The notes under the pieces were generated by a model, which did no database searches, was not told where the DNA came from, and saw only the letters and a list, made by a program, of their open reading frames with translations. A stretch of 64,000 nucleotides of DNA from Escherichia coli (lineage in GTDB: Bacteria > Pseudomonadota > Gammaproteobacteria > Enterobacterales > Enterobacteriaceae): assembly GCF_029227855.1 (NCBI RefSeq), contig NZ_CP074356.1; one strand, written 5' to 3'. Below are positions 7,689-16,315 of this stretch, one piece after another. Position 1 is the stretch's first letter; every line of letters starts with the position of its first letter. A program made the position numbers and the translations under genes.

Positions 7689-8014
7689 TGGCAAAGAACC
7701 GTAGCCGTCGTCTGCGTAAAAAAATGCACATCGACGAATTCCAGGAATTAGGATTTTCGGTGGCATGGCGATTCCCGGAAGGTACATCGGAAGAACAGAT
7801 TGATAAAACCGTTGATGACTTTATTAACGAGGTTATCGAACCGAACAAACTGGCCTTTGACGGCAGCGGTTATCTGGCCTGGGAAGGTCTGATCTGCATG
7901 CAGGAAATCGGCAAATGCACCGAAGAACATCAGGCGATTGTGCGTAAGTGGCTGGAAGAGCGCAAACTGGGCGAGGTACGCACCAGCGAACTTTTCGACG
8001 TTTGGTGGGACTAA
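7688..8014 (+). CDS. yggL: DUF469 protein YggL (108 aa)
   Basis: ORF 7658..8014; protein from [23 protein letters not shown]; start overlaps trmB stop by 1 nt (taATG). Confidence 0.88.
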   Translation: MAKNRSRRLRKKMHIDEFQELGFSVAWRFPEGTSEEQIDKTVDDFINEVIEPNKLAFDGSGYLAWEGLICMQEIGKCTEEHQAIVRKWLEERKLGEVRTSELFDVWWD

Positions 8015-8042
8015 GAAAGCATACGGGCGATGACAAATGCAA

Positions 8043-8128
<86 letters not shown>

Positions 8129-8197
8129 GATGACATGTACTTTGTTATCAATCTGGGGCCAGCAAATGCTGGCCTGATTTGTTCTTGAGGGAAGACT

Positions 8198-8917
8198 ATG
8201 ATGCGCAAAATGCTGCTGGCGGCAGCACTTTCAGTGACGGCAATGACCGCTCACGCCGACTACCAGTGCAGCGTCACGCCGCGTGACGATGTGATTGTCA
8301 GCCCGCAAACCGTGCAGGTGAAGGGCGAAAACGGCAATCTGGTGATCACGCCAGACGGCAACGTGATGTATAACGGTAAGCAATATTCCCTGAACGCCGC
8401 CCAGCGCGAGCAGGCGAAGGATTATCAGGCTGAACTGCGTAGCACCCTGCCGTGGATTGATGAAGGCGCGAAAAGCCGCGTCGAGAAAGCCCGTATTGCG
8501 CTGGATAAAATTATCGTTCAGGAGATGGGCGAAAGCAGCAAAATGCGCAGCCGTCTGACCAAACTTGATGCGCAGCTGAAAGAGCAGATGAACCGCATTA
8601 TCGAAACGCGCAGCGATGGCCTGACGTTTCACTATAAAGCCATTGATCAGGTTCGCGCCGAAGGCCAGCAATTAGTGAATCAGGCAATGGGCGGAATTTT
8701 ACAGGACAGCATTAATGAAATGGGCGCGAAAGCGGTGCTGAAAAGCGGTGGTAACCCATTACAGAATGTGCTGGGAAGCCTGGGCGGTCTGCAATCCTCA
8801 ATCCAAACCGAATGGAAAAAGCAGGAAAAAGATTTCCAGCAGTTTGGCAAAGATGTTTGTAGCCGCGTTGTGACTCTGGAAGATAGTCGCAAAGCCCTGG
8901 TCGGGAATTTAAAATAA
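8198..8917 (+). CDS. yggN: DUF2884 periplasmic protein YggN
   Basis: 239-aa ORF with signal peptide MMRKMLLAAALSVTAMTAHADYQCSV... Confidence 0.88.
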   Translation: MMRKMLLAAALSVTAMTAHADYQCSVTPRDDVIVSPQTVQVKGENGNLVITPDGNVMYNGKQYSLNAAQREQAKDYQAELRSTLPWIDEGAKSRVEKARIALDKIIVQEMGESSKMRSRLTKLDAQLKEQMNRIIETRSDGLTFHYKAIDQVRAEGQQLVNQAMGGILQDSINEMGAKAVLKSGGNPLQNVLGSLGGLQSSIQTEWKKQEKDFQQFGKDVCSRVVTLEDSRKALVGNLK

Positions 8918-8956
8918 TCCTCTATTTTAAGACGGCATAATACTTTTTTATGCCGT

Positions 8957-9672
8957 TTAATTGTGCACAGAAAACCCCCAGCTAGGCTGGGGGTTCCGGA
9001 AAGCTTTCAGCTTTGAGCCAGTTATTAAAACCCCTTTTGATTTGTTAAAACACTTTGCGGTCTGGCAACTGCAAGTGTCAAACAAGAAATCAAAAGGGGG
9101 TCCCAATGGGGAACGAAAAGAGCTTAGCGCACACCCGATGGAACTGTAAATATCACATAGTTTTTGCGCCAAAATACCGAAGACAGGTGTTCTACAGAGA
9201 GAAGCGTAGAGCAATAGGCAGTATTTTGAGAAAGCTGTGTGAGTGGAAAAGCGTACGGATTCTGGAAGCTGAATGCTGTGCAGATCATATCCATATGCTT
9301 GTGGAGATCCCGCCCAAAATGAGCGTATCCGGGTTTATGGGATATCTGAAAGGGAAAAGCAGTCTGATGCTTTACGAGCAGTTTGGTGATTTGAAATTCA
9401 AATACAGGAACAGGGAGTTCTGGTGCAGAGGGTACTACGTCGATACAGTGGGTAAGAACACGGCGAAGATACAGGATTACATAAAGCACCAGCTTGAAGA
9501 GGATAAAATGGGAGAGCAGTTATCGATTCCCTATCCGGGCAGCCCGTTTACGGGCCGTAAGTAACGAAGTTGGATGCAAATGTCAGATCGTGTGCGCCTG
9601 TTAGGGCGCGGCTGGTAAGAGAGCCTTATAGGCGCATTTGAAAAACCTCCGGCTATGCCGGAGGATATTTAT
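8957..9672 (+). mobile_element. IS200 insertion sequence (IS200/IS605 family), about 0.7 kb; ends approximate
   Basis: Contains a 152-aa Y1 transposase essentially identical to IS200 TnpA as I recall it. Left-end terminator hairpin cccccagc-tag-gctggggg (about 8973-8993), long-range pairing ccccttttg/caaaagggg that would occlude the tnpA RBS, and right-end hairpin cctccggc-tat-gccggagg (about 9647-9665). Confidence 0.8.
9106..9564 (+). CDS. tnpA: IS200 transposase TnpA (HuH Y1 tyrosine transposase, 152 aa)
   Basis: ORF 9055..9564; protein from MGNEKSLAHTRWNCKYHIVFAPKYRRQVFY...HIHMLVEIPPK...YIKHQLEED matches IS200 TnpA (HuH motif HIH). Confidence 0.9.
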   Translation: MGNEKSLAHTRWNCKYHIVFAPKYRRQVFYREKRRAIGSILRKLCEWKSVRILEAECCADHIHMLVEIPPKMSVSGFMGYLKGKSSLMLYEQFGDLKFKYRNREFWCRGYYVDTVGKNTAKIQDYIKHQLEEDKMGEQLSIPYPGSPFTGRK

Positions 9673-9803
9673 TCTTCGTTTTGTTACCTGCCTCTAACTT
9701 TGTAGATCTCCAAAATATATTCACGTTGTAAATTGTTTAACGTCAAATTTCCCATACAAAGCTAAGGGATAATGCGTAGCGTTCACGTAACTGGAGGAAT
9801 GAA

Positions 9804-10850
9804 ATGGAGTTTTTCAAAAAGACGGCACTTGCCGCACTGGTTATGGGTTTTAGTGGTGCAGCATTGGCATTACCCAATATCACCATTTTAGCAACCGGCG
9901 GGACCATTGCCGGTGGTGGTGACTCCGCAACCAAATCTAACTACACAGCGGGTAAAGTTGGCGTAGAAAATCTGGTTAATGCGGTGCCGCAACTGAAGGA
10001 CATTGCGAACGTTAAAGGCGAGCAGGTAGTGAATATCGGCTCCCAGGACATGAACGATAATGTCTGGCTGACACTGGCGAAAAAAATTAACACCGACTGC
10101 GATAAAACCGACGGCTTCGTCATTACCCACGGTACCGACACGATGGAAGAAACCGCTTACTTCCTCGACCTGACGGTGAAATGCGACAAACCGGTGGTGA
10201 TGGTCGGCGCAATGCGCCCGTCCACGTCCATGAGCGCAGACGGTCCATTCAACCTGTATAACGCGGTAGTGACCGCAGCTGATAAAGCCTCTGCTAATCG
10301 TGGCGTGCTGGTGGTGATGAACGACACCGTACTGGACGGTCGCGATGTCACCAAAACCAACACCACCGACGTAGCGACCTTCAAGTCTGTTAACTACGGT
10401 CCTCTGGGTTACATTCACAACGGTAAGATTGACTACCAACGTACCCCGGCACGTAAGCATACCAGCGACACGCCGTTCGATGTCTCTAAGCTGAATGAAC
10501 TGCCGAAAGTCGGCATTGTTTATAACTACGCTAACGCATCCGATCTTCCGGCTAAAGCACTGGTAGATGCGGGCTATGATGGCATTGTTAGCGCTGGTGT
10601 GGGTAACGGCAACCTGTATAAAACCGTATTTGACACTCTGGCGACCGCCGCGAAAAACGGCACTGCAGTCGTGCGTTCTTCCCGCGTACCGACGGGCGCT
10701 ACCACTCAGGATGCTGAAGTGGATGATGCGAAATACGGCTTCGTCGCCTCTGGCACGCTGAACCCGCAAAAAGCGCGCGTTCTGCTGCAGCTTGCTCTGA
10801 CGCAAACCAAAGATCCGCAGCAGATCCAGCAGATCTTCAATCAGTACTAA
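9804..10850 (+). CDS. ansB: L-asparaginase 2 (periplasmic, 348 aa)
   Basis: MEFFKKTALAALVMGFSGAALALPNITILATGGTIAGGG...; the TGGTIAG asparaginase motif. Confidence 0.93.
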   Translation: MEFFKKTALAALVMGFSGAALALPNITILATGGTIAGGGDSATKSNYTAGKVGVENLVNAVPQLKDIANVKGEQVVNIGSQDMNDNVWLTLAKKINTDCDKTDGFVITHGTDTMEETAYFLDLTVKCDKPVVMVGAMRPSTSMSADGPFNLYNAVVTAADKASANRGVLVVMNDTVLDGRDVTKTNTTDVATFKSVNYGPLGYIHNGKIDYQRTPARKHTSDTPFDVSKLNELPKVGIVYNYANASDLPAKALVDAGYDGIVSAGVGNGNLYKTVFDTLATAAKNGTAVVRSSRVPTGATTQDAEVDDAKYGFVASGTLNPQKARVLLQLALTQTKDPQQIQQIFNQY

Positions 10851-10855
10851 TCACC

Positions 10856-10885
10856 TCGCCCCGGTATCGTGCCGGGGCTTTTCAC
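10856..10885 (+). terminator. Rho-independent terminator after ansB
   Basis: gccccggtatcgtgccggggc followed by ttttc. Confidence 0.65.
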
Positions 10886-10965
10886 TTCAGACTTACGTCC
10901 ATTGCCAATTTTCATTATCCTGATGATAATCACCGGGATAAATTATTCCTCGTGAGGGTTTTCGG

Positions 10966-11973
10966 GTGAAAAAGCAATGGATTGTTGGCACGGCGCTGCT
11001 TATGTTGATGACTGGTAATGTCTGGGCAGATGGCGAACCGCCAACTGAAAATATTTTAAAAGATCAATTCAAAAAGCAGTATCACGGCATTCTCAAGCTT
11101 GATGCCATCACCTTAAAAAATCTTGATGCTAAGGGTAATCAGGCCACCTGGTCAGCGGAAGGCGATGTCTCTTCCAGTGACGATCTCTATACCTGGGTCG
11201 GTCAGTTGGCAGATTACGAACTGCTCGAACAGACCTGGACGAAAGATAAACCGGTAAAATTCTCGGCGATGTTAACCAGTAAAGGAACGCCCGCGTCTGG
11301 CTGGTCGGTGAACTTTTACTCTTTTCAGGCGGTAGCCAGCGATCGTGGGCGGGTGGTCGACGATATCAAAACGAATAATAAATATCTGATCGTGAATAGC
11401 GAAGATTTCAATTATCGCTTTAGTCAGCTTGAGTCTGCGTTGAATAACCAGAAGAACTCGATTCCTGCGCTGGAAAAGGAAGTGAAAGCGCTTGATAAGC
11501 AAATGGTGGCGGCGCAGAAAGCAGCGGATGCATATTGGGGAAAAGATGCAAACGGTAAGCAAATGACCCGCGAAGACGCCTTTAAAAAAATTCACCAACA
11601 GCGTGATGAGTTTAATAAACAGAACGATAGCGAGGCTTTCGCGGTTAAATATGACAAAGAGGTTTATCAACCGGCGATTGTGGCATGTCATAAACAGAGT
11701 GCAGAGTGTTATGAAGTGCCAATTCAGCAGAAGCGAGATTTCGATATCAACGAACAACGGCGACAGACTTTTCTGCAATCACAAAAACTTAGCCGTAAAT
11801 TGCAGGATGACTGGATAACGCTCGAAAAAGGGCAATATCCGTTAACGATGAAAGTTTCAGAAATAAACAGTAAAAAAGTCGCGATTTTGATGAAAATTGA
11901 TGATATCAACCAGGCTAATGAACGCTGGAAAAAAGATACCGAACAATTGCGGCGCAATGGAGTGATTAAGTAA
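10966..11973 (+). CDS. yggM: DUF1202 periplasmic protein YggM (GTG start)
   Basis: 335-aa ORF MKKQWIVGTALLMLMTGNVWADGEPP... starting at gtg. Confidence 0.85.
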   Translation: MKKQWIVGTALLMLMTGNVWADGEPPTENILKDQFKKQYHGILKLDAITLKNLDAKGNQATWSAEGDVSSSDDLYTWVGQLADYELLEQTWTKDKPVKFSAMLTSKGTPASGWSVNFYSFQAVASDRGRVVDDIKTNNKYLIVNSEDFNYRFSQLESALNNQKNSIPALEKEVKALDKQMVAAQKAADAYWGKDANGKQMTREDAFKKIHQQRDEFNKQNDSEAFAVKYDKEVYQPAIVACHKQSAECYEVPIQQKRDFDINEQRRQTFLQSQKLSRKLQDDWITLEKGQYPLTMKVSEINSKKVAILMKIDDINQANERWKKDTEQLRRNGVIK

Positions 11974-11989
11974 CTCATGTTAAGTACCT

Positions 11990-12030
11990 TTGCCGGATAA
12001 TATAAAAAGTTATCCGGCAAATTATTTTTT
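11990..12030. terminator. Bidirectional terminator between convergent yggM and TRAP permease gene
   Basis: tgccggataa-tataaaaag-ttatccggca followed by attatttttt. Confidence 0.6.
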
Positions 12031-13330
12031 ACATTAGCCCTAGTAGCTGTGGAATGAACAAGGATATTTGCGGGATGTAAGTGATCATCATCAACGCGAT
12101 TAACAATGCGGCATAAAATGGCAGCAATGGTTTGATCAAATGTTGAATCTTCACACCTGAAATAGAACAACCAACAAATAGCGCACTACCCACCGGCGGT
12201 GTTAACAGCCCAATACAAAGGTTGGCCACCATCATAATACCGAAATGTACCGGATCCATTCCCAGCTCTTGTGCAATCGGCAAGAAGATTGGTGTGAAGA
12301 TTAGTACAGCCGGTGTCATGTCCATAAAGATGCCGACAATTAATAAGACGATATTAATCAGCAGCAATATGATCAGTGGGTTATCAGAAATCCCCATCAA
12401 CGCGTCGCTGATCATATAAGGAATATCAGCATTGGTCATTGACCAGGACATGCCCACGGAAAAACCGATCAACAGTAATACAATCGAAGTGGTAACAACC
12501 GATTCCAGAATCAGTTTGGGTAAATCGCGCCATTTTACTTCCCGGTAAATCAGCACCGAGAGAATAAATGTGTAGACAACGGCAATCGCAGACGCTTCAG
12601 TTGCGGTAAAAATGCCGCCCAGAATGCCGCCCATTACAATGAACACCAGAAGCAAACTTGGTAAGGCATCCAGAAACGCTTTACAGGCCTGAGCAAAGGT
12701 TGCTCTTTCTGAAAGTGGGTAGCCACGGCGTTTAGCAATAATGCCGCAGACTATCATTACCGCAAGACCCATTAAGATCCCTGGCAAATATCCCGCCATA
12801 AATAGCGATGCTACAGAAACGCCGCCAGCTGTCAGGGAAAACACAATTAACACGTTTGAGGGCGGTATCAGTAATCCAGTAATACAGGATGAGACGTTTA
12901 CAGCGGTAGAAAATGCCGGATCATAACCTTGTTTGGTCTGAATGGGATTCAGTGTGCCACCAACGGCAGCAGCTGCCGCAACGGCTGAACCAGAAATGGA
13001 ACCAAACATCATATTCGCCAGGACGTTCACATGACCAAGTGAACTAGGAACCCGACCAACCATTACCTGGGCGAGGTTAATCAAACGTATCGCAATACCG
13101 CCGCTGTTCATCAGCGTTCCGGCAAAGATGAAAAAGGGGATTGCCAATAGGGCAAAGTTATCCAGTCCATTAGCCAGTCGCTGCGAAACAGTGATTGCCG
13201 CGATATCCCAGGGAAACATCAACAGCATTGAAGCTACAGTGGCAATACCGATTGAGAACGAAATGGGCACACCAATAAAGACCAGCACAAAAAAACAGCC
13301 AAATAGTGTAAGCGCAATATAACTATCCAT
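12029..13330 (-). CDS. TRAP transporter large permease subunit (DctM family, 433 aa)
   Basis: Highly hydrophobic 433-aa ORF, MDSYIALTLFGCFFVLVFIGVPISFSIGIATVASMLLMFPWD...; typical DctM architecture. Start overlaps the stop of the upstream small permease. Confidence 0.85.
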   Translation of the reverse strand: MDSYIALTLFGCFFVLVFIGVPISFSIGIATVASMLLMFPWDIAAITVSQRLANGLDNFALLAIPFFIFAGTLMNSGGIAIRLINLAQVMVGRVPSSLGHVNVLANMMFGSISGSAVAAAAAVGGTLNPIQTKQGYDPAFSTAVNVSSCITGLLIPPSNVLIVFSLTAGGVSVASLFMAGYLPGILMGLAVMIVCGIIAKRRGYPLSERATFAQACKAFLDALPSLLLVFIVMGGILGGIFTATEASAIAVVYTFILSVLIYREVKWRDLPKLILESVVTTSIVLLLIGFSVGMSWSMTNADIPYMISDALMGISDNPLIILLLINIVLLIVGIFMDMTPAVLIFTPIFLPIAQELGMDPVHFGIMMVANLCIGLLTPPVGSALFVGCSISGVKIQHLIKPLLPFYAALLIALMMITYIPQISLFIPQLLGLM

Positions 13331-13842
13331 TAACTGGCCTCCTGCGCAGGTTGTTTCAGTTGTTGAATGCTTTGATTAATAAAACACAAGGCATAAAACA
13401 TCATCACCACTCCACTTAATGGCAGAATGATATATACGTATCCCATCGGTATTTGCATCGCGGCAGATACTTGTGATGTTGCCAGCGTTTTATCAATTAA
13501 TTTCAGGCCACCAGTCACAATGACCGAACCGGCAAAACCTAAAATGAGAATGTTAATGACTATACTAAGAAGTAATTGCTTGCGCTTATTCAGGGCGAGA
13601 GCAAATAAATCGATAGAGAGATGTCTCTGCGCGCCGACGGTATATGCAGCACCTAATAATCCTACCCAGATCATCAAAAAGCGTGCCAGCTCATCGGTTA
13701 ATGTACTTGGCTGGTTAAGTACGTAGCGGCTAAATACTTGCCAGACTACGCATACAACCAGAGCAAGCATTACGGCGACAGAAAACGCGGCAATGACGCG
13801 GTCTACCGCAAGTTTCAGGCGGTTAAATATCATTGTAAGCAT
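13330..13842 (-). CDS. TRAP transporter small permease subunit (DctQ family, 170 aa)
   Basis: 170-aa four-TM protein MLTMIFNRLKLAVDRVIAAFSVAVMLALVVCVVWQVFSRYVLNQPSTLTDELARF..., between the SBP and the large permease. Confidence 0.8.
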   Translation of the reverse strand: MLTMIFNRLKLAVDRVIAAFSVAVMLALVVCVVWQVFSRYVLNQPSTLTDELARFLMIWVGLLGAAYTVGAQRHLSIDLFALALNKRKQLLLSIVINILILGFAGSVIVTGGLKLIDKTLATSQVSAAMQIPMGYVYIILPLSGVVMMFYALCFINQSIQQLKQPAQEAS

Positions 13843-13877
13843 CCTGGAAAATCAGGGCCAGAGACTGGCCCGAAATA

Positions 13878-14864
13878 TTATTGAGCAGCGTTGTCGAATT
13901 TCTCTAACAAAGCAGCTTGTTTTGGATCTTTTTTGAAGTCGTCAAACAGAGGTTGAACTGCGGCACGGAATGGGGCTTTATCAACCTTAACGATTTCACC
14001 ACCCATAGCTTTCGCTTGAGCACGTGTGTCAGCGTCAATTTTTTCCCACAATTTTTGTTGATAAGCTTCGGATTTCTTCGCCGCTGTTTCGAGGATTTGT
14101 TGCTGTTCTGGGGTTAATTTATTCCATGTTTTGGTGGAGATAACCAAAAAGTCAGGAATTGAGGCATGTTCATCTTCAGAAAAGACTTTGGCAATTTCGA
14201 TATGTCGAGTCTGCACCCAGGAAGGCACGTTATTTTCTGCGCCATCTACTACACCTTGCTGCATCGCAGTATAAACTTCGCCAAATGAAATTGGAGTGGG
14301 TGAGCCACCCATCAGTTCAATCATTTTGATGGTGGTCGGGCTTGGCTGAACACGAATTTTCAGCCCTTTAAGATCTTCTGGCTTAGTAATCGGTTTTTTC
14401 GCATAGAAACTGCGTGTACCCGCTACATAAGCTGATAAAGCAAAAAAGCCTTTATCTTTTGTTGAATCCATAATTTCTTTACCAACTTCACCAAAAACCA
14501 CTTTGTTGAAGTGCGCCTGATCTTTAAATAAGAACGGCAAATTATAGATAGCATAAATATTATCAAAAGACTCCAGATCACTGGCGGAACCTTTGGTCAT
14601 ATCCAGTGCACCATTTTGCAACAACTCCATAGTTTCTCGCGCATTACCCATCTGGCTGCTGGGGTAAATACGGATCACCATATTACCTTTTGACAGCTGT
14701 TTTACTTCTTTCGCCAGCTTTTCAAAACTCTGATGTACAACATGACTTCTTTCCAGGTTGTGTGCTAACTTTAACGTCACTTTTTCTGCGGCGTTTACGC
14801 CAGTGCTAACCAGAGCCAGCAAGGATGCGCAGACTAATGAGCGGGTAAATGACCTCATTTTCAT
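13878..14864 (-). CDS. TRAP transporter periplasmic substrate-binding protein (DctP family, 328 aa)
   Basis: Signal peptide MKMRSFTRSLVCASLLALVSTGVNA, DctP-family fold; a conserved Arg (AGTRSFY) is consistent with carboxylate binding. Substrate unknown. Confidence 0.85.
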   Translation of the reverse strand: MKMRSFTRSLVCASLLALVSTGVNAAEKVTLKLAHNLERSHVVHQSFEKLAKEVKQLSKGNMVIRIYPSSQMGNARETMELLQNGALDMTKGSASDLESFDNIYAIYNLPFLFKDQAHFNKVVFGEVGKEIMDSTKDKGFFALSAYVAGTRSFYAKKPITKPEDLKGLKIRVQPSPTTIKMIELMGGSPTPISFGEVYTAMQQGVVDGAENNVPSWVQTRHIEIAKVFSEDEHASIPDFLVISTKTWNKLTPEQQQILETAAKKSEAYQQKLWEKIDADTRAQAKAMGGEIVKVDKAPFRAAVQPLFDDFKKDPKQAALLEKFDNAAQ

Positions 14865-15178
14865 AAAAAAACTCCCTGTTGAAGAATGGAAATTGGTTGA
14901 TATCTAATTGTGCTTATCAGTGCTTTGTGCGACAAATTGGTTAACCTGTCTGACAACTTGTCTATGTTTATCACAACTTGAAATAAAGTCAGAAATTAAA
15001 TATTAATTTTGTGCGCCAGGTTGTACATGTTTATAATCAATAAATGATGAGTAAATATTCAGTAAATATATATAATAAATATCGTCGATATTTATTCAGT
15101 AAGAAATATATTTTTGCCGAAGTTAATTAACGGGGGGGTTAAAAGAAGTGATTAATGCGCCCGCAGGCGCATTAATGA
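14865..15178 (-). promoter_or_regulatory. AT-rich promoter/operator region of the TRAP operon, with direct repeats and a 10-bp-arm palindrome at the hemW 3-prime end
   Basis: Very AT-rich by eye; repeated TATTCAGTAA (about 15054 and 15089) and ACAACTTG (about 14957 and 14979); palindrome attaatgcgc-ccgcag-gcgcattaat at about 15152-15177. Confidence 0.45.
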
Positions 15179-16315
15179 TTACTCAGCGAGGAATAATTCA
15201 AGAAGTGAGTTTAAGAATAATTTACCATGCTTGGTTATCTGCCAGTAATCCGCACATTCTGTGAGATAACCTTGAGCGATAGCCTCGTCTAACTGAGAGC
15301 GAATAACTTCTTCAGAAAGGCCAGTATATTGGCTAAACTCCACGCGCGGCGCGGCCTCAAGCAGACGGAAGCGATTCATAAAGAACTCAAACGGTTTATC
15401 TGCAGCTTCGACATCACGCTGGCTTTCCAGATATCTTCCCTGCATAAAACCACGCGGATGACGCGTTTTGGTGGTACGCAGAATGCGACCATCCGGGAAG
15501 GTGACTTTGCCGTGCGCGCCGCAGCCAATACCAATGTAGTCGCCAAATCGCCAGTAGTTGAGATTGTGCTGGCACTGATAACCTGGTTTGGCGTAAGCGG
15601 ATGTTTCATACTGCTGATAGCCCGCTGCGGTTAATAACTGATGCCCCTGTTCGAATATATCCCACAACGCATCGTCGTCCGGCAGCACCGGCGGGCGAGA
15701 GCCAAACAGCGTATTAGGTTCGATGGTCAGTTGATACCAGGAAAGATGCGGCGGATTCAGTTCAATAGCCTGGCGCAGATCGCCTAGCGCCTCTTCCAGT
15801 GATTGATCCGGCAGCCCATGCATCAAATCAAGGTTAAAGCTACGTAACCCTAAACCGCTCGCCAGCTTTGCCGCTCGTTTCGCTTCTTGCGGGCCATGAA
15901 TGCGCCCAAGTCGTTTCAGCTTTTCTTCGCTAAAACTCTGCACACCAATAGAGATGCGGTTCACACCAGCACGCTGATAATCGACAAAGCGATCGGCTTC
16001 AACCGTACCAGGGTTCGCTTCCATAGTAATTTCTGCATCCGCTGCCAGCGGCAAACGCGCACGCACGCCGTCCAGCAGCGTTTGCATCGCCGGGCCGGAA
16101 AGCAGGCTCGGCGTACCACCGCCAATAAAGATTGTCTGCACTTCACGGCCCTGAGCGTAAGCCACGTCGTTGTCCAGATCGTTAAGCAGATGCTGAACAT
16201 AATCGTCGTGCGGCACTTCTCCTTTCAACGCGTGAGAGTTGAAATCGCAGTACGGGCATTTCTGCACGCACCACGGGATGTGAATGTAGAGACTCAGCGG
16301 CGGTAATTTAACCAT
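15179..16315 (-). CDS. hemW: Radical-SAM heme chaperone HemW (YggW, 378 aa)
   Basis: [28 protein letters not shown]... CxxxCxxC radical-SAM motif. Confidence 0.92.

Follow-up and report, generated by a model that had tools for sequence, protein, structure and literature searches.

Between yggN and ansB, the 64,000-nucleotide stretch of Escherichia coli DNA analyzed here (from here on, the window) carries a mobile element at a position where K-12 has none. This locus raises the questions of what the element is, why it lies at this exact position, and whether its presence matters for ansB, the gene immediately downstream.

Identity and extent of the element

The element is flanked by the following features and has the same orientation as ansB, as the initial annotation had proposed.

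8198-8917, plus strand: yggN (DUF2884), the upstream neighbor (ORF; NCBIfam PRK10626, 443.5 bits; RefSeq)
8930-8958, plus strand: intrinsic-terminator hairpin of yggN, with G+C-rich core arms at 8932-8940 and 8948-8956
9804-10850, plus strand: ansB, encoding L-asparaginase II, the downstream neighbor (ORF, profile matches, and RefSeq)

Alignment of 8880-9810 with the matching K-12-type interval gave a clean 711-bp insertion. The register of this insertion is ambiguous by 3 nt (8963-9673 back to 8960-9670), as the left flank and the insert both end in ATT; we adopted 8963-9673 because, in this family, the target is as a rule found beside the left end. The empty site in K-12 reads ...ATGCCGTTTAATT/CTTCGTTTTG... 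(in short form, ATGCCGTTTAATT/CTTCG, in which the slash marks the insertion point), while the junctions in the window read ...ATGCCGTTTAATT-GTGCACAG...GGAGGATATTTATT-CTTCGTTTTG...; taking out the 711 bp restores the K-12 empty site exactly, and there is no target duplication. In an inverted-repeat search, no inverted repeat was found to join the two termini, which have hairpins near them instead. Of the boundaries initially given to the element (8957-9672), the right one was accurate to within 1 nt, while the left one has to be moved inward, as it included 6 nt of flanking DNA (TTAATT). The proposal that K-12 lacks IS200 agrees with our finding that K-12-type genomes match the flanks only and have an empty site. 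The comparison with the K-12 intergenic sequence, which had been suggested at the same time, places the insertion point 4-6 nt past the yggN hairpin and 9 bp before a CRP-like site that is described below.

Within its 711 bp, the element has tnpA as the single long sense ORF and no tnpB. We mapped the following features to it.

8973-8995, plus strand: left-end hairpin with a perfect 10-bp stem and a 3-nt loop, corresponding to IS200 nt 12-34
8973-9096, plus strand: match to Rfam RF01405 (STnc490) over the full model length, covering the left-end hairpin and the 5'UTR stem-loop
9025-9115, minus strand: putative antisense small RNA art200, ~90 nt, with a start at IS nt 153/154, near 9114/9115 (by homology only)
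9031-9099, plus strand: tnpA 5'UTR stem-loop with arms at 9031-9046 and 9084-9099, corresponding to IS200 nt 69/70-138
9106-9564, plus strand: tnpA, encoding a 152-aa Y1 HUH transposase (product WP_000526135.1)
9646-9664, plus strand: right-end hairpin with an 8-bp stem, followed by the tail ATATTTATT (together 9646-9673)

The tnpA ORF matched the Pfam family Y1_Tnp (PF01797; E=3.8e-38) and the NCBIfam family transpos_IS200 (NF033573; 147.7 bits against a cut-off of 55). TnpA has the HUH motif (H61-I-H63) as well as the catalytic tyrosine Y125, as expected from the 152-aa Y1 HUH transposase that had been read from the ORF; the Y125F substitution gives a catalytically dead IS200 TnpA (PMC4513863). 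Its closest solved relatives are 2ec2, 2f4f, 2a6m (IS608 TnpA), and 2xm3 (ISDra2 TnpA), with 2ec2, 2a6m, and 2xm3 matching at E values of 4e-23 to 1e-14. The TnpA product is identical in the annotated copies of 12 other E. coli genomes.

The published IS200 map contains a terminator at nt 12-34, which acts bidirectionally against transcription from outside, and, at nt 69-138, a stem-loop by which the ribosome-binding site (RBS) is occluded (PMC4513863). Numbering the window copy with nt 1 at 8962 puts its structures at nt 12-34 and 70-138, matching this map. The 5'UTR stem is a 16-nt inverted repeat with 94% complementarity (fold z=-4.3), and its 3' arm covers bases 9094-9099, i.e., the first six of the Shine-Dalgarno sequence AAGGGGGT (9094-9101). 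The right-end hairpin together with its T-rich tail scored as terminator-like on both strands. Thus, the left-end hairpin, the RBS-hiding stem, and the right-end hairpin that had been noted earlier are all present, at 8973-8995, 9031-9099, and 9646-9664, respectively. The Rfam match reached 144.6 bits (gathering score, 56; E=8e-31). We note that the STnc490 model matches the strand that carries tnpA, whereas STnc490/art200 has been described as antisense to the tnpA 5'UTR (PMC4513863); in strand and extent, the sense 5'tnpA region seems to be a better fit for the model than art200. The art200 coordinates given above were carried over from PMC4513863 by the IS numbering.

In E. coli strain MRSN346647, which shows no difference from the window in the stretches compared (including all 1,201 bases of 8700-9900), the RefSeq product between yggN and ansB is named 'IS200/IS605-like element IS200C family transposase' (WP_000526135.1). 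The window copy shares 99.7-100% identity with the best-matching IS200C copies listed for other E. coli genomes. Using the 716 bases of 8957-9672 as a query, we found matches with at least 80% coverage in 2,063 of 5,426 complete E. coli genomes, at up to 35 places per genome and roughly 10,700 places overall; a chance resemblance can thus be set aside. The 64-kb window itself has no second IS200 copy, and the left-end hairpin is present in it once. That the element is a complete IS200, as had been annotated, is borne out by the 711-bp insert, the intact tnpA, the Pfam, NCBIfam, and Rfam matches, and the RefSeq assignment to IS200C. We consider it very likely that the element is an intact, ordinary IS200C of the IS200 group in the IS200/IS605 family, a grading that applies jointly to the whole explanation developed here (identity, targeting, silencing, and near-neutrality for ansB). 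This kind of element is already known and annotated, and the IS200C copy itself is unremarkable.

Upstream of this locus, a REP-type palindrome lies between yggL and yggN (8037-8177, with a REP-like hairpin at 8092-8140). Its match to naRNA4 is below threshold (42.6 bits against a gathering score of 59.5). The palindrome lies inside a 46-aa ORF that RefSeq lists as a hypothetical protein (WP_001296361.1) in some genomes and not in others; this ORF is probably an over-call. Within the window, G+C content is lowest in the 8-kb bin at 8001-16000 (0.464), where the AT skew is also unusually high at +0.097, compared with -0.03 to 0 in the other bins.

Carriers of the insertion at the yggN-ansB site

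Among the 5,426 complete E. coli genomes, 5 carry the insertion between yggN and ansB (MRSN346647, MLI106K1, JNEC-KY178, GN06156, and F5446). The junctions and the insert length (711 bp) are the same in all five, as they are in 8 copies at other loci. Relative to the window, the four carriers other than MRSN346647 differ as follows.

MLI106K1: 2 SNPs in the 6 kb to the left; 1 difference in the IS
JNEC-KY178: 2 SNPs in the 6 kb to the left; 0 differences in the IS
GN06156: 77 SNPs in the 6 kb to the left; 6 differences in the 711 bp of the IS
F5446: 109 SNPs in the 6 kb to the left; 1 difference in the IS

For comparison, a genome with an empty site differs from the window at 75 positions, and the flanks of GN06156 and F5446 are as diverged as this. 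The empty site of F5446, when reconstructed, gives a 1,222-nt sequence that is 100% identical, in one piece, to many genomes with an empty site, and the closest relatives of GN06156 at the locus (99.8% identity) also have an empty site. The carriers therefore fall into three diverged backgrounds, the nearest relatives of which have an empty site, and this distribution points to the yggN terminator site as a recurrent hot spot for IS200C. On the simplest reading of the sequences, the same nucleotide was hit independently, and in the same orientation, in two E. coli lineages at a minimum and probably in three. The initial annotation did not extend to a terminator-linked recurrent hot spot, which is our addition.

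The identical junctions in all five carriers would also be expected from one ancient insertion that was inherited vertically and then lost by precise excision in nearly all lineages, in which case there would be no hot spot; excision in the family is indeed precise (PMC5027513), and the empty sites are scarless. Such a history would require very many separate losses, as 5,420 of 5,425 genomes are empty, including the nearest relatives of F5446 and GN06156, and it fits badly with an element described as barely mobile (PMC4513863; 10.1101/2024.06.26.600842). Moreover, the IS copies are at most 6 nt in 711 apart, while their flanks are diverged like E. coli lineages generally. We consider this explanation highly improbable. 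Somewhat less so, and still improbable, is a single insertion followed by homologous recombination of a short IS-bearing segment between lineages. E. coli recombines often, and around the IS, GN06156 matches the window without a single difference for 213 nt on the left and 618 nt on the right. Nevertheless, the six differences in the GN06156 copy lie next to ~830 nt of identical flank, the opposite of what co-transfer would leave, and in F5446, where the closest SNPs on either side of the IS are at distances of 76 nt (left) and 83 nt (right), the transferred tract would have to be shorter than 870 bp. Thousands of losses or a tract of <870 bp are much less economical than independent insertions.

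Recent work described IS200 as apparently immobile (10.1101/2024.06.26.600842). The recurrent insertions at the yggN-ansB site, as read from the sequences, argue that IS200C still moves on evolutionary time scales. The insertion in the window marks a small non-K-12 clade (MRSN346647, MLI106K1, and JNEC-KY178) and could be useful as a typing marker. We also observed a lineage-variable island beside the IS locus: three TRAP-transporter genes follow yggM (from ~12029 onward in the window, minus strand) in the window lineage, GN06156, and strain 4/1-1, while F5446 lacks them and has hemW directly after yggM.

Terminator hairpins at the left flank

The insertion target in the window is the tail of the yggN terminator, TTAATT (8957-8962), and the IS starts 4-6 nt past the hairpin. 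A similar arrangement was found at other copies. All nine E. coli IS200C copies examined have a G+C-rich hairpin and a T-rich tail directly to the left, and eight of them are at unrelated loci (lysS-idi, pqqU-mcbR, yiaA-wecH, mscL-trkA, yehD-yehC, and others). These copies had been selected as the best matches of a query extending 6 nt into the flank; the hairpins were outside the query and are, therefore, unbiased. The conserved ATT to the left of the nine copies was considered as a target motif and rejected because the query that selected them contained that flank.

To look beyond E. coli, we scanned 100,044 species genomes for exact matches to the 23-nt left-end hairpin and obtained at least 120 stretches. 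The matches listed include Yersinia pestis (IS1541), Vibrio, Brenneria, Dickeya, Mailhella/Desulfovibrio, and Oxalobacter, as well as Bacillota and other metagenome-assembled genomes, and among them a G+C-rich hairpin followed by a T-run lies directly to the left of the element in almost every case. We then used a strict definition of a hairpin with a T-tail, i.e., a stem without mismatches that is 5 bp or longer, includes no fewer than 3 G-C pairs, ends 2-20 nt before the boundary, and is followed by a tail with at least 60% T. By this definition, 68 of the 118 unique left flanks among the matches listed (of which approximately half are from one Y. pestis genome) had a hairpin with a T-tail, compared with 12 of 4,520 random positions at the same loci. 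The remaining 50 flanks did not pass, and many of these visibly have imperfect stems. Among the same listed matches, T occupies flank position -2 in 116 and position -1 in 105 of the 118 flanks.

In Y. pestis NCTC5923, four of the stretches contain tandem IS1541 copies, which are arranged head-to-tail ~710 bp apart and are joined at hairpin-ATATTTATT/GTGCCC. Because these copies abut exactly at the right end, the element's own right end behaves like a target. The right end of IS200C, too, looks like the target sites of the element. With regard to the strand, the GC skew of the plus strand is positive in all eight 8-kb bins of the window, and from the skew, our only indication of replication direction, the IS top strand is predicted to be on the lagging-strand template; a bias for the lagging-strand template has been reported for the family (PMC5027513).

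These observations suggest how the window copy may have reached its position. Elements of this group transpose through a single-strand 'peel and paste' pathway, in which TnpA binds the hairpins near both ends of one strand, excises this strand as a circle, and reinserts it into single-stranded DNA without target duplication. The window copy landed in the T-rich tail 4-6 nt past the yggN hairpin, with its top strand predicted to be on the lagging-strand template. We infer that the group preferentially targets a hairpin followed by a T-run with TT at its end. A site of this type resembles the element's own right end, in which a hairpin is followed by ATATTTATT; a preference of this kind would lead to independent hits on the same nucleotide in at least two, and probably three, lineages. 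More speculatively, base pairing could occur between the T-run and the A-run immediately 5' of each IS hairpin, in the manner of the IS608 guide sequences. With confidence little above even, we favor the general rule that IS200-group transposases choose their targets by structure, with a terminator hairpin and a T-run ending in TT serving as a stand-in for the right end, exposure on the lagging-strand template, and integration 3' of TT. If true, this rule would explain the recurrent hit at yggN, the tandem IS1541 copies, and the near-universal post-terminator position across distant phyla, and also why the element is both harmless and transcriptionally silent.

The enrichment of terminators could partly reflect the survival of harmless insertions rather than targeting. 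An excess of terminator-like sequences immediately upstream of insertion sequences, strongest for IS200/IS605, was reported in a 2025-26 preprint, the authors of which read it as a limit on transposase expression (10.1101/2025.07.22.666184). The enrichment as such is, therefore, already known, and our reading in terms of target choice differs from the expression-control reading. In the open literature on IS1541 and terminators and on HUH phylogenomics, we found no paper stating a target rule for IS200 or IS1541; the preprint was the one relevant source. The recurrent hits and the post-terminator position across genera make for a concrete target hypothesis, while the wider point is modest; if true, target choice would explain how IS200-group elements persist at almost no cost to the host.

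The scan also returned exact matches to the 23-nt hairpin in very distant genomes, such as Vibrio ruber and Mailhella/Desulfovibrio, and in metagenome-assembled genomes of Oxalobacter, Bacillota, Peptococcaceae, Elusimicrobia, and Saccharibacteria, many of them at contig ends. This distribution implies either a wide horizontal spread or that some contigs are mis-binned. In the stretch from Dickeya undicola (positions ~697-719), the arrangement is TTTTTTGTCTATAGAA-hairpin-TTCTATAGACAAAAAAA, in which the hairpin is followed by the reverse complement of its own left flank. This palindrome is long and perfect, lacks tnpA, and may be a solo-end or miniature derivative.

Consequences for ansB and comparison with related elements

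Downstream of the IS, we identified two candidate activator sites by reading the sequence.

9682-9697, plus strand: CRP-like site TGTTA-N6-TCTAA, centered at 9689.5
9733-9746, plus strand: FNR-like site TTGTT-N4-GTCAA, centered at 9739.5

The two sites are 50.0 bp apart from center to center. Based on this spacing, we take them to be the putative sites at -91.5 and -41.5 of the ansB promoter; Jennings and Beacham reportedly described in 1993 an architecture for ansB with CRP at -91.5 and FNR at -41.5. The transcription start of ansB would then be near 9781, with GATAAT at 9768-9773 as the predicted -10 element. Co-activation of ansB by CRP and FNR has been documented (as cited in PMC3688515). 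The composite CRP/FNR pattern is unique in the window; as it was built post hoc from the same sequence, we rejected its uniqueness as an independent test. With its right end at 9673, the IS stops 9 bp short of the CRP-like half-site, at approximately -108 relative to the predicted start, and the placement of the IS directly upstream of the ansB regulatory region, as originally suggested, is thus correct.

The insertion probably is near-neutral for ansB, judging from the sequence. Between the IS end and the ansB ATG, there is one SNP relative to K-12, and the CRP-like and FNR-like sites, the -10 element, and the leader are unchanged. On the other side, the yggN hairpin and the first six bases of its tail (TTAATT) are the same as in K-12, and the predicted RNA fold of the terminator has an energy of -14.3 kcal/mol in both; the yggN terminator is the only thing displaced by the insertion. 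In a consensus scan of 8800-9850, no promoter-like site was found on either strand, and the idea of an outward or hybrid promoter at the right end of the IS was rejected on the same scan. Little effect on ansB is expected because the activator sites and core promoter are intact, the right-end hairpin is terminator-like, and there is no promoter-like site in the scanned region. The IS adds two hairpins between yggN and ansB, i.e., the one at the left end, a reported terminator (PMC4513863), and the terminator-like one at the right end, and read-through from yggN would, if anything, be lower with the IS than without it. The right-end hairpin would restore a terminator-like barrier just upstream of ansB, with the IS ending at approximately -108. 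With regard to the element itself, we infer that several reported mechanisms keep the window copy silent, which would include the yggN terminator ahead of it, the terminator hairpin at its left end, the RBS-hiding stem, art200, and Hfq.

Two other views of the insertion give it more weight for the host. It could matter for ansB by altering CRP/FNR activation or read-through from yggN and, in this way, change the expression of asparaginase II in this lineage, a possibility raised by the initial annotation. Only 9 bp separate the IS from the CRP-like half-site, which puts the IS end at the margin of the segment expected to be bent by CRP, and all upstream DNA has been shifted 711 bp away. Against this stand the K-12-like state of both activator sites, the -10 element, and the leader, the intact yggN hairpin with the first six bases of its tail, and a right-end hairpin that is terminator-like on both strands with no outward promoter-like site; we consider such an effect unlikely, and although a regulatory effect is possible, it would probably be small. 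It is also conceivable, although doubtful, that the copy is kept as a source of the regulatory small RNAs 5'tnpA and art200 and not as a mobile element. The 5'UTR region matches the Rfam model almost perfectly, and small RNAs derived from it act on host genes in Salmonella (PMC5435999; 10.1101/2024.06.26.600842). What makes us doubt it is that tnpA is intact, with an identical product in the copies from 12 other E. coli genomes, that the recurrent insertions show movement on evolutionary time scales, and that no E. coli target of 5'tnpA or art200 is known. A role for small RNAs is compatible with our main explanation, i.e., an intact IS200C that inserted after the yggN terminator and is near-neutral for ansB.

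Among the closest known systems is IS200 of Salmonella enterica, with which IS200C of E. coli shares a lone tnpA for a 152-aa Y1 HUH transposase, the hairpin at nt 12-34, the stem at nt 69/70-138 that hides the Shine-Dalgarno sequence AAGGGGGT, the right-end hairpin, and the lack of inverted repeats and target duplication. Apart from size (711 bp for the window copy versus the 707 bp quoted for Salmonella IS200), we found no difference between the two. IS1541 of Y. pestis and Y. pseudotuberculosis has the identical 23-nt left-end hairpin, the same position after a hairpin and T-run, and an identical right end (hairpin CCTCCGGCTATGCCGGAGG and tail ATATTTATT); it differs from the window copy in the first bases of the left end (GTGCCCAGAA against GTGCACAGAA) and, in Y. 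pestis, is present at very high copy number and in tandem copies. IS608 of Helicobacter pylori and ISDra2 of Deinococcus radiodurans, the family members that have been studied biochemically, have a homologous TnpA, hairpins close to their ends, duplication-free insertion 3' of a short target, and a bias for the lagging-strand template. However, they carry tnpB and use defined 4-5-nt targets (TTAC and TTGAT), whereas the target of IS200C is apparently structural, namely a hairpin and a T-run with TT at its end. Insertion directly behind intrinsic terminator hairpins is also seen in bacterial class C (IIC) group II introns, which are unrelated retroelements with an RNA-based mechanism; their likeness to IS200C is an analogy in target choice only.
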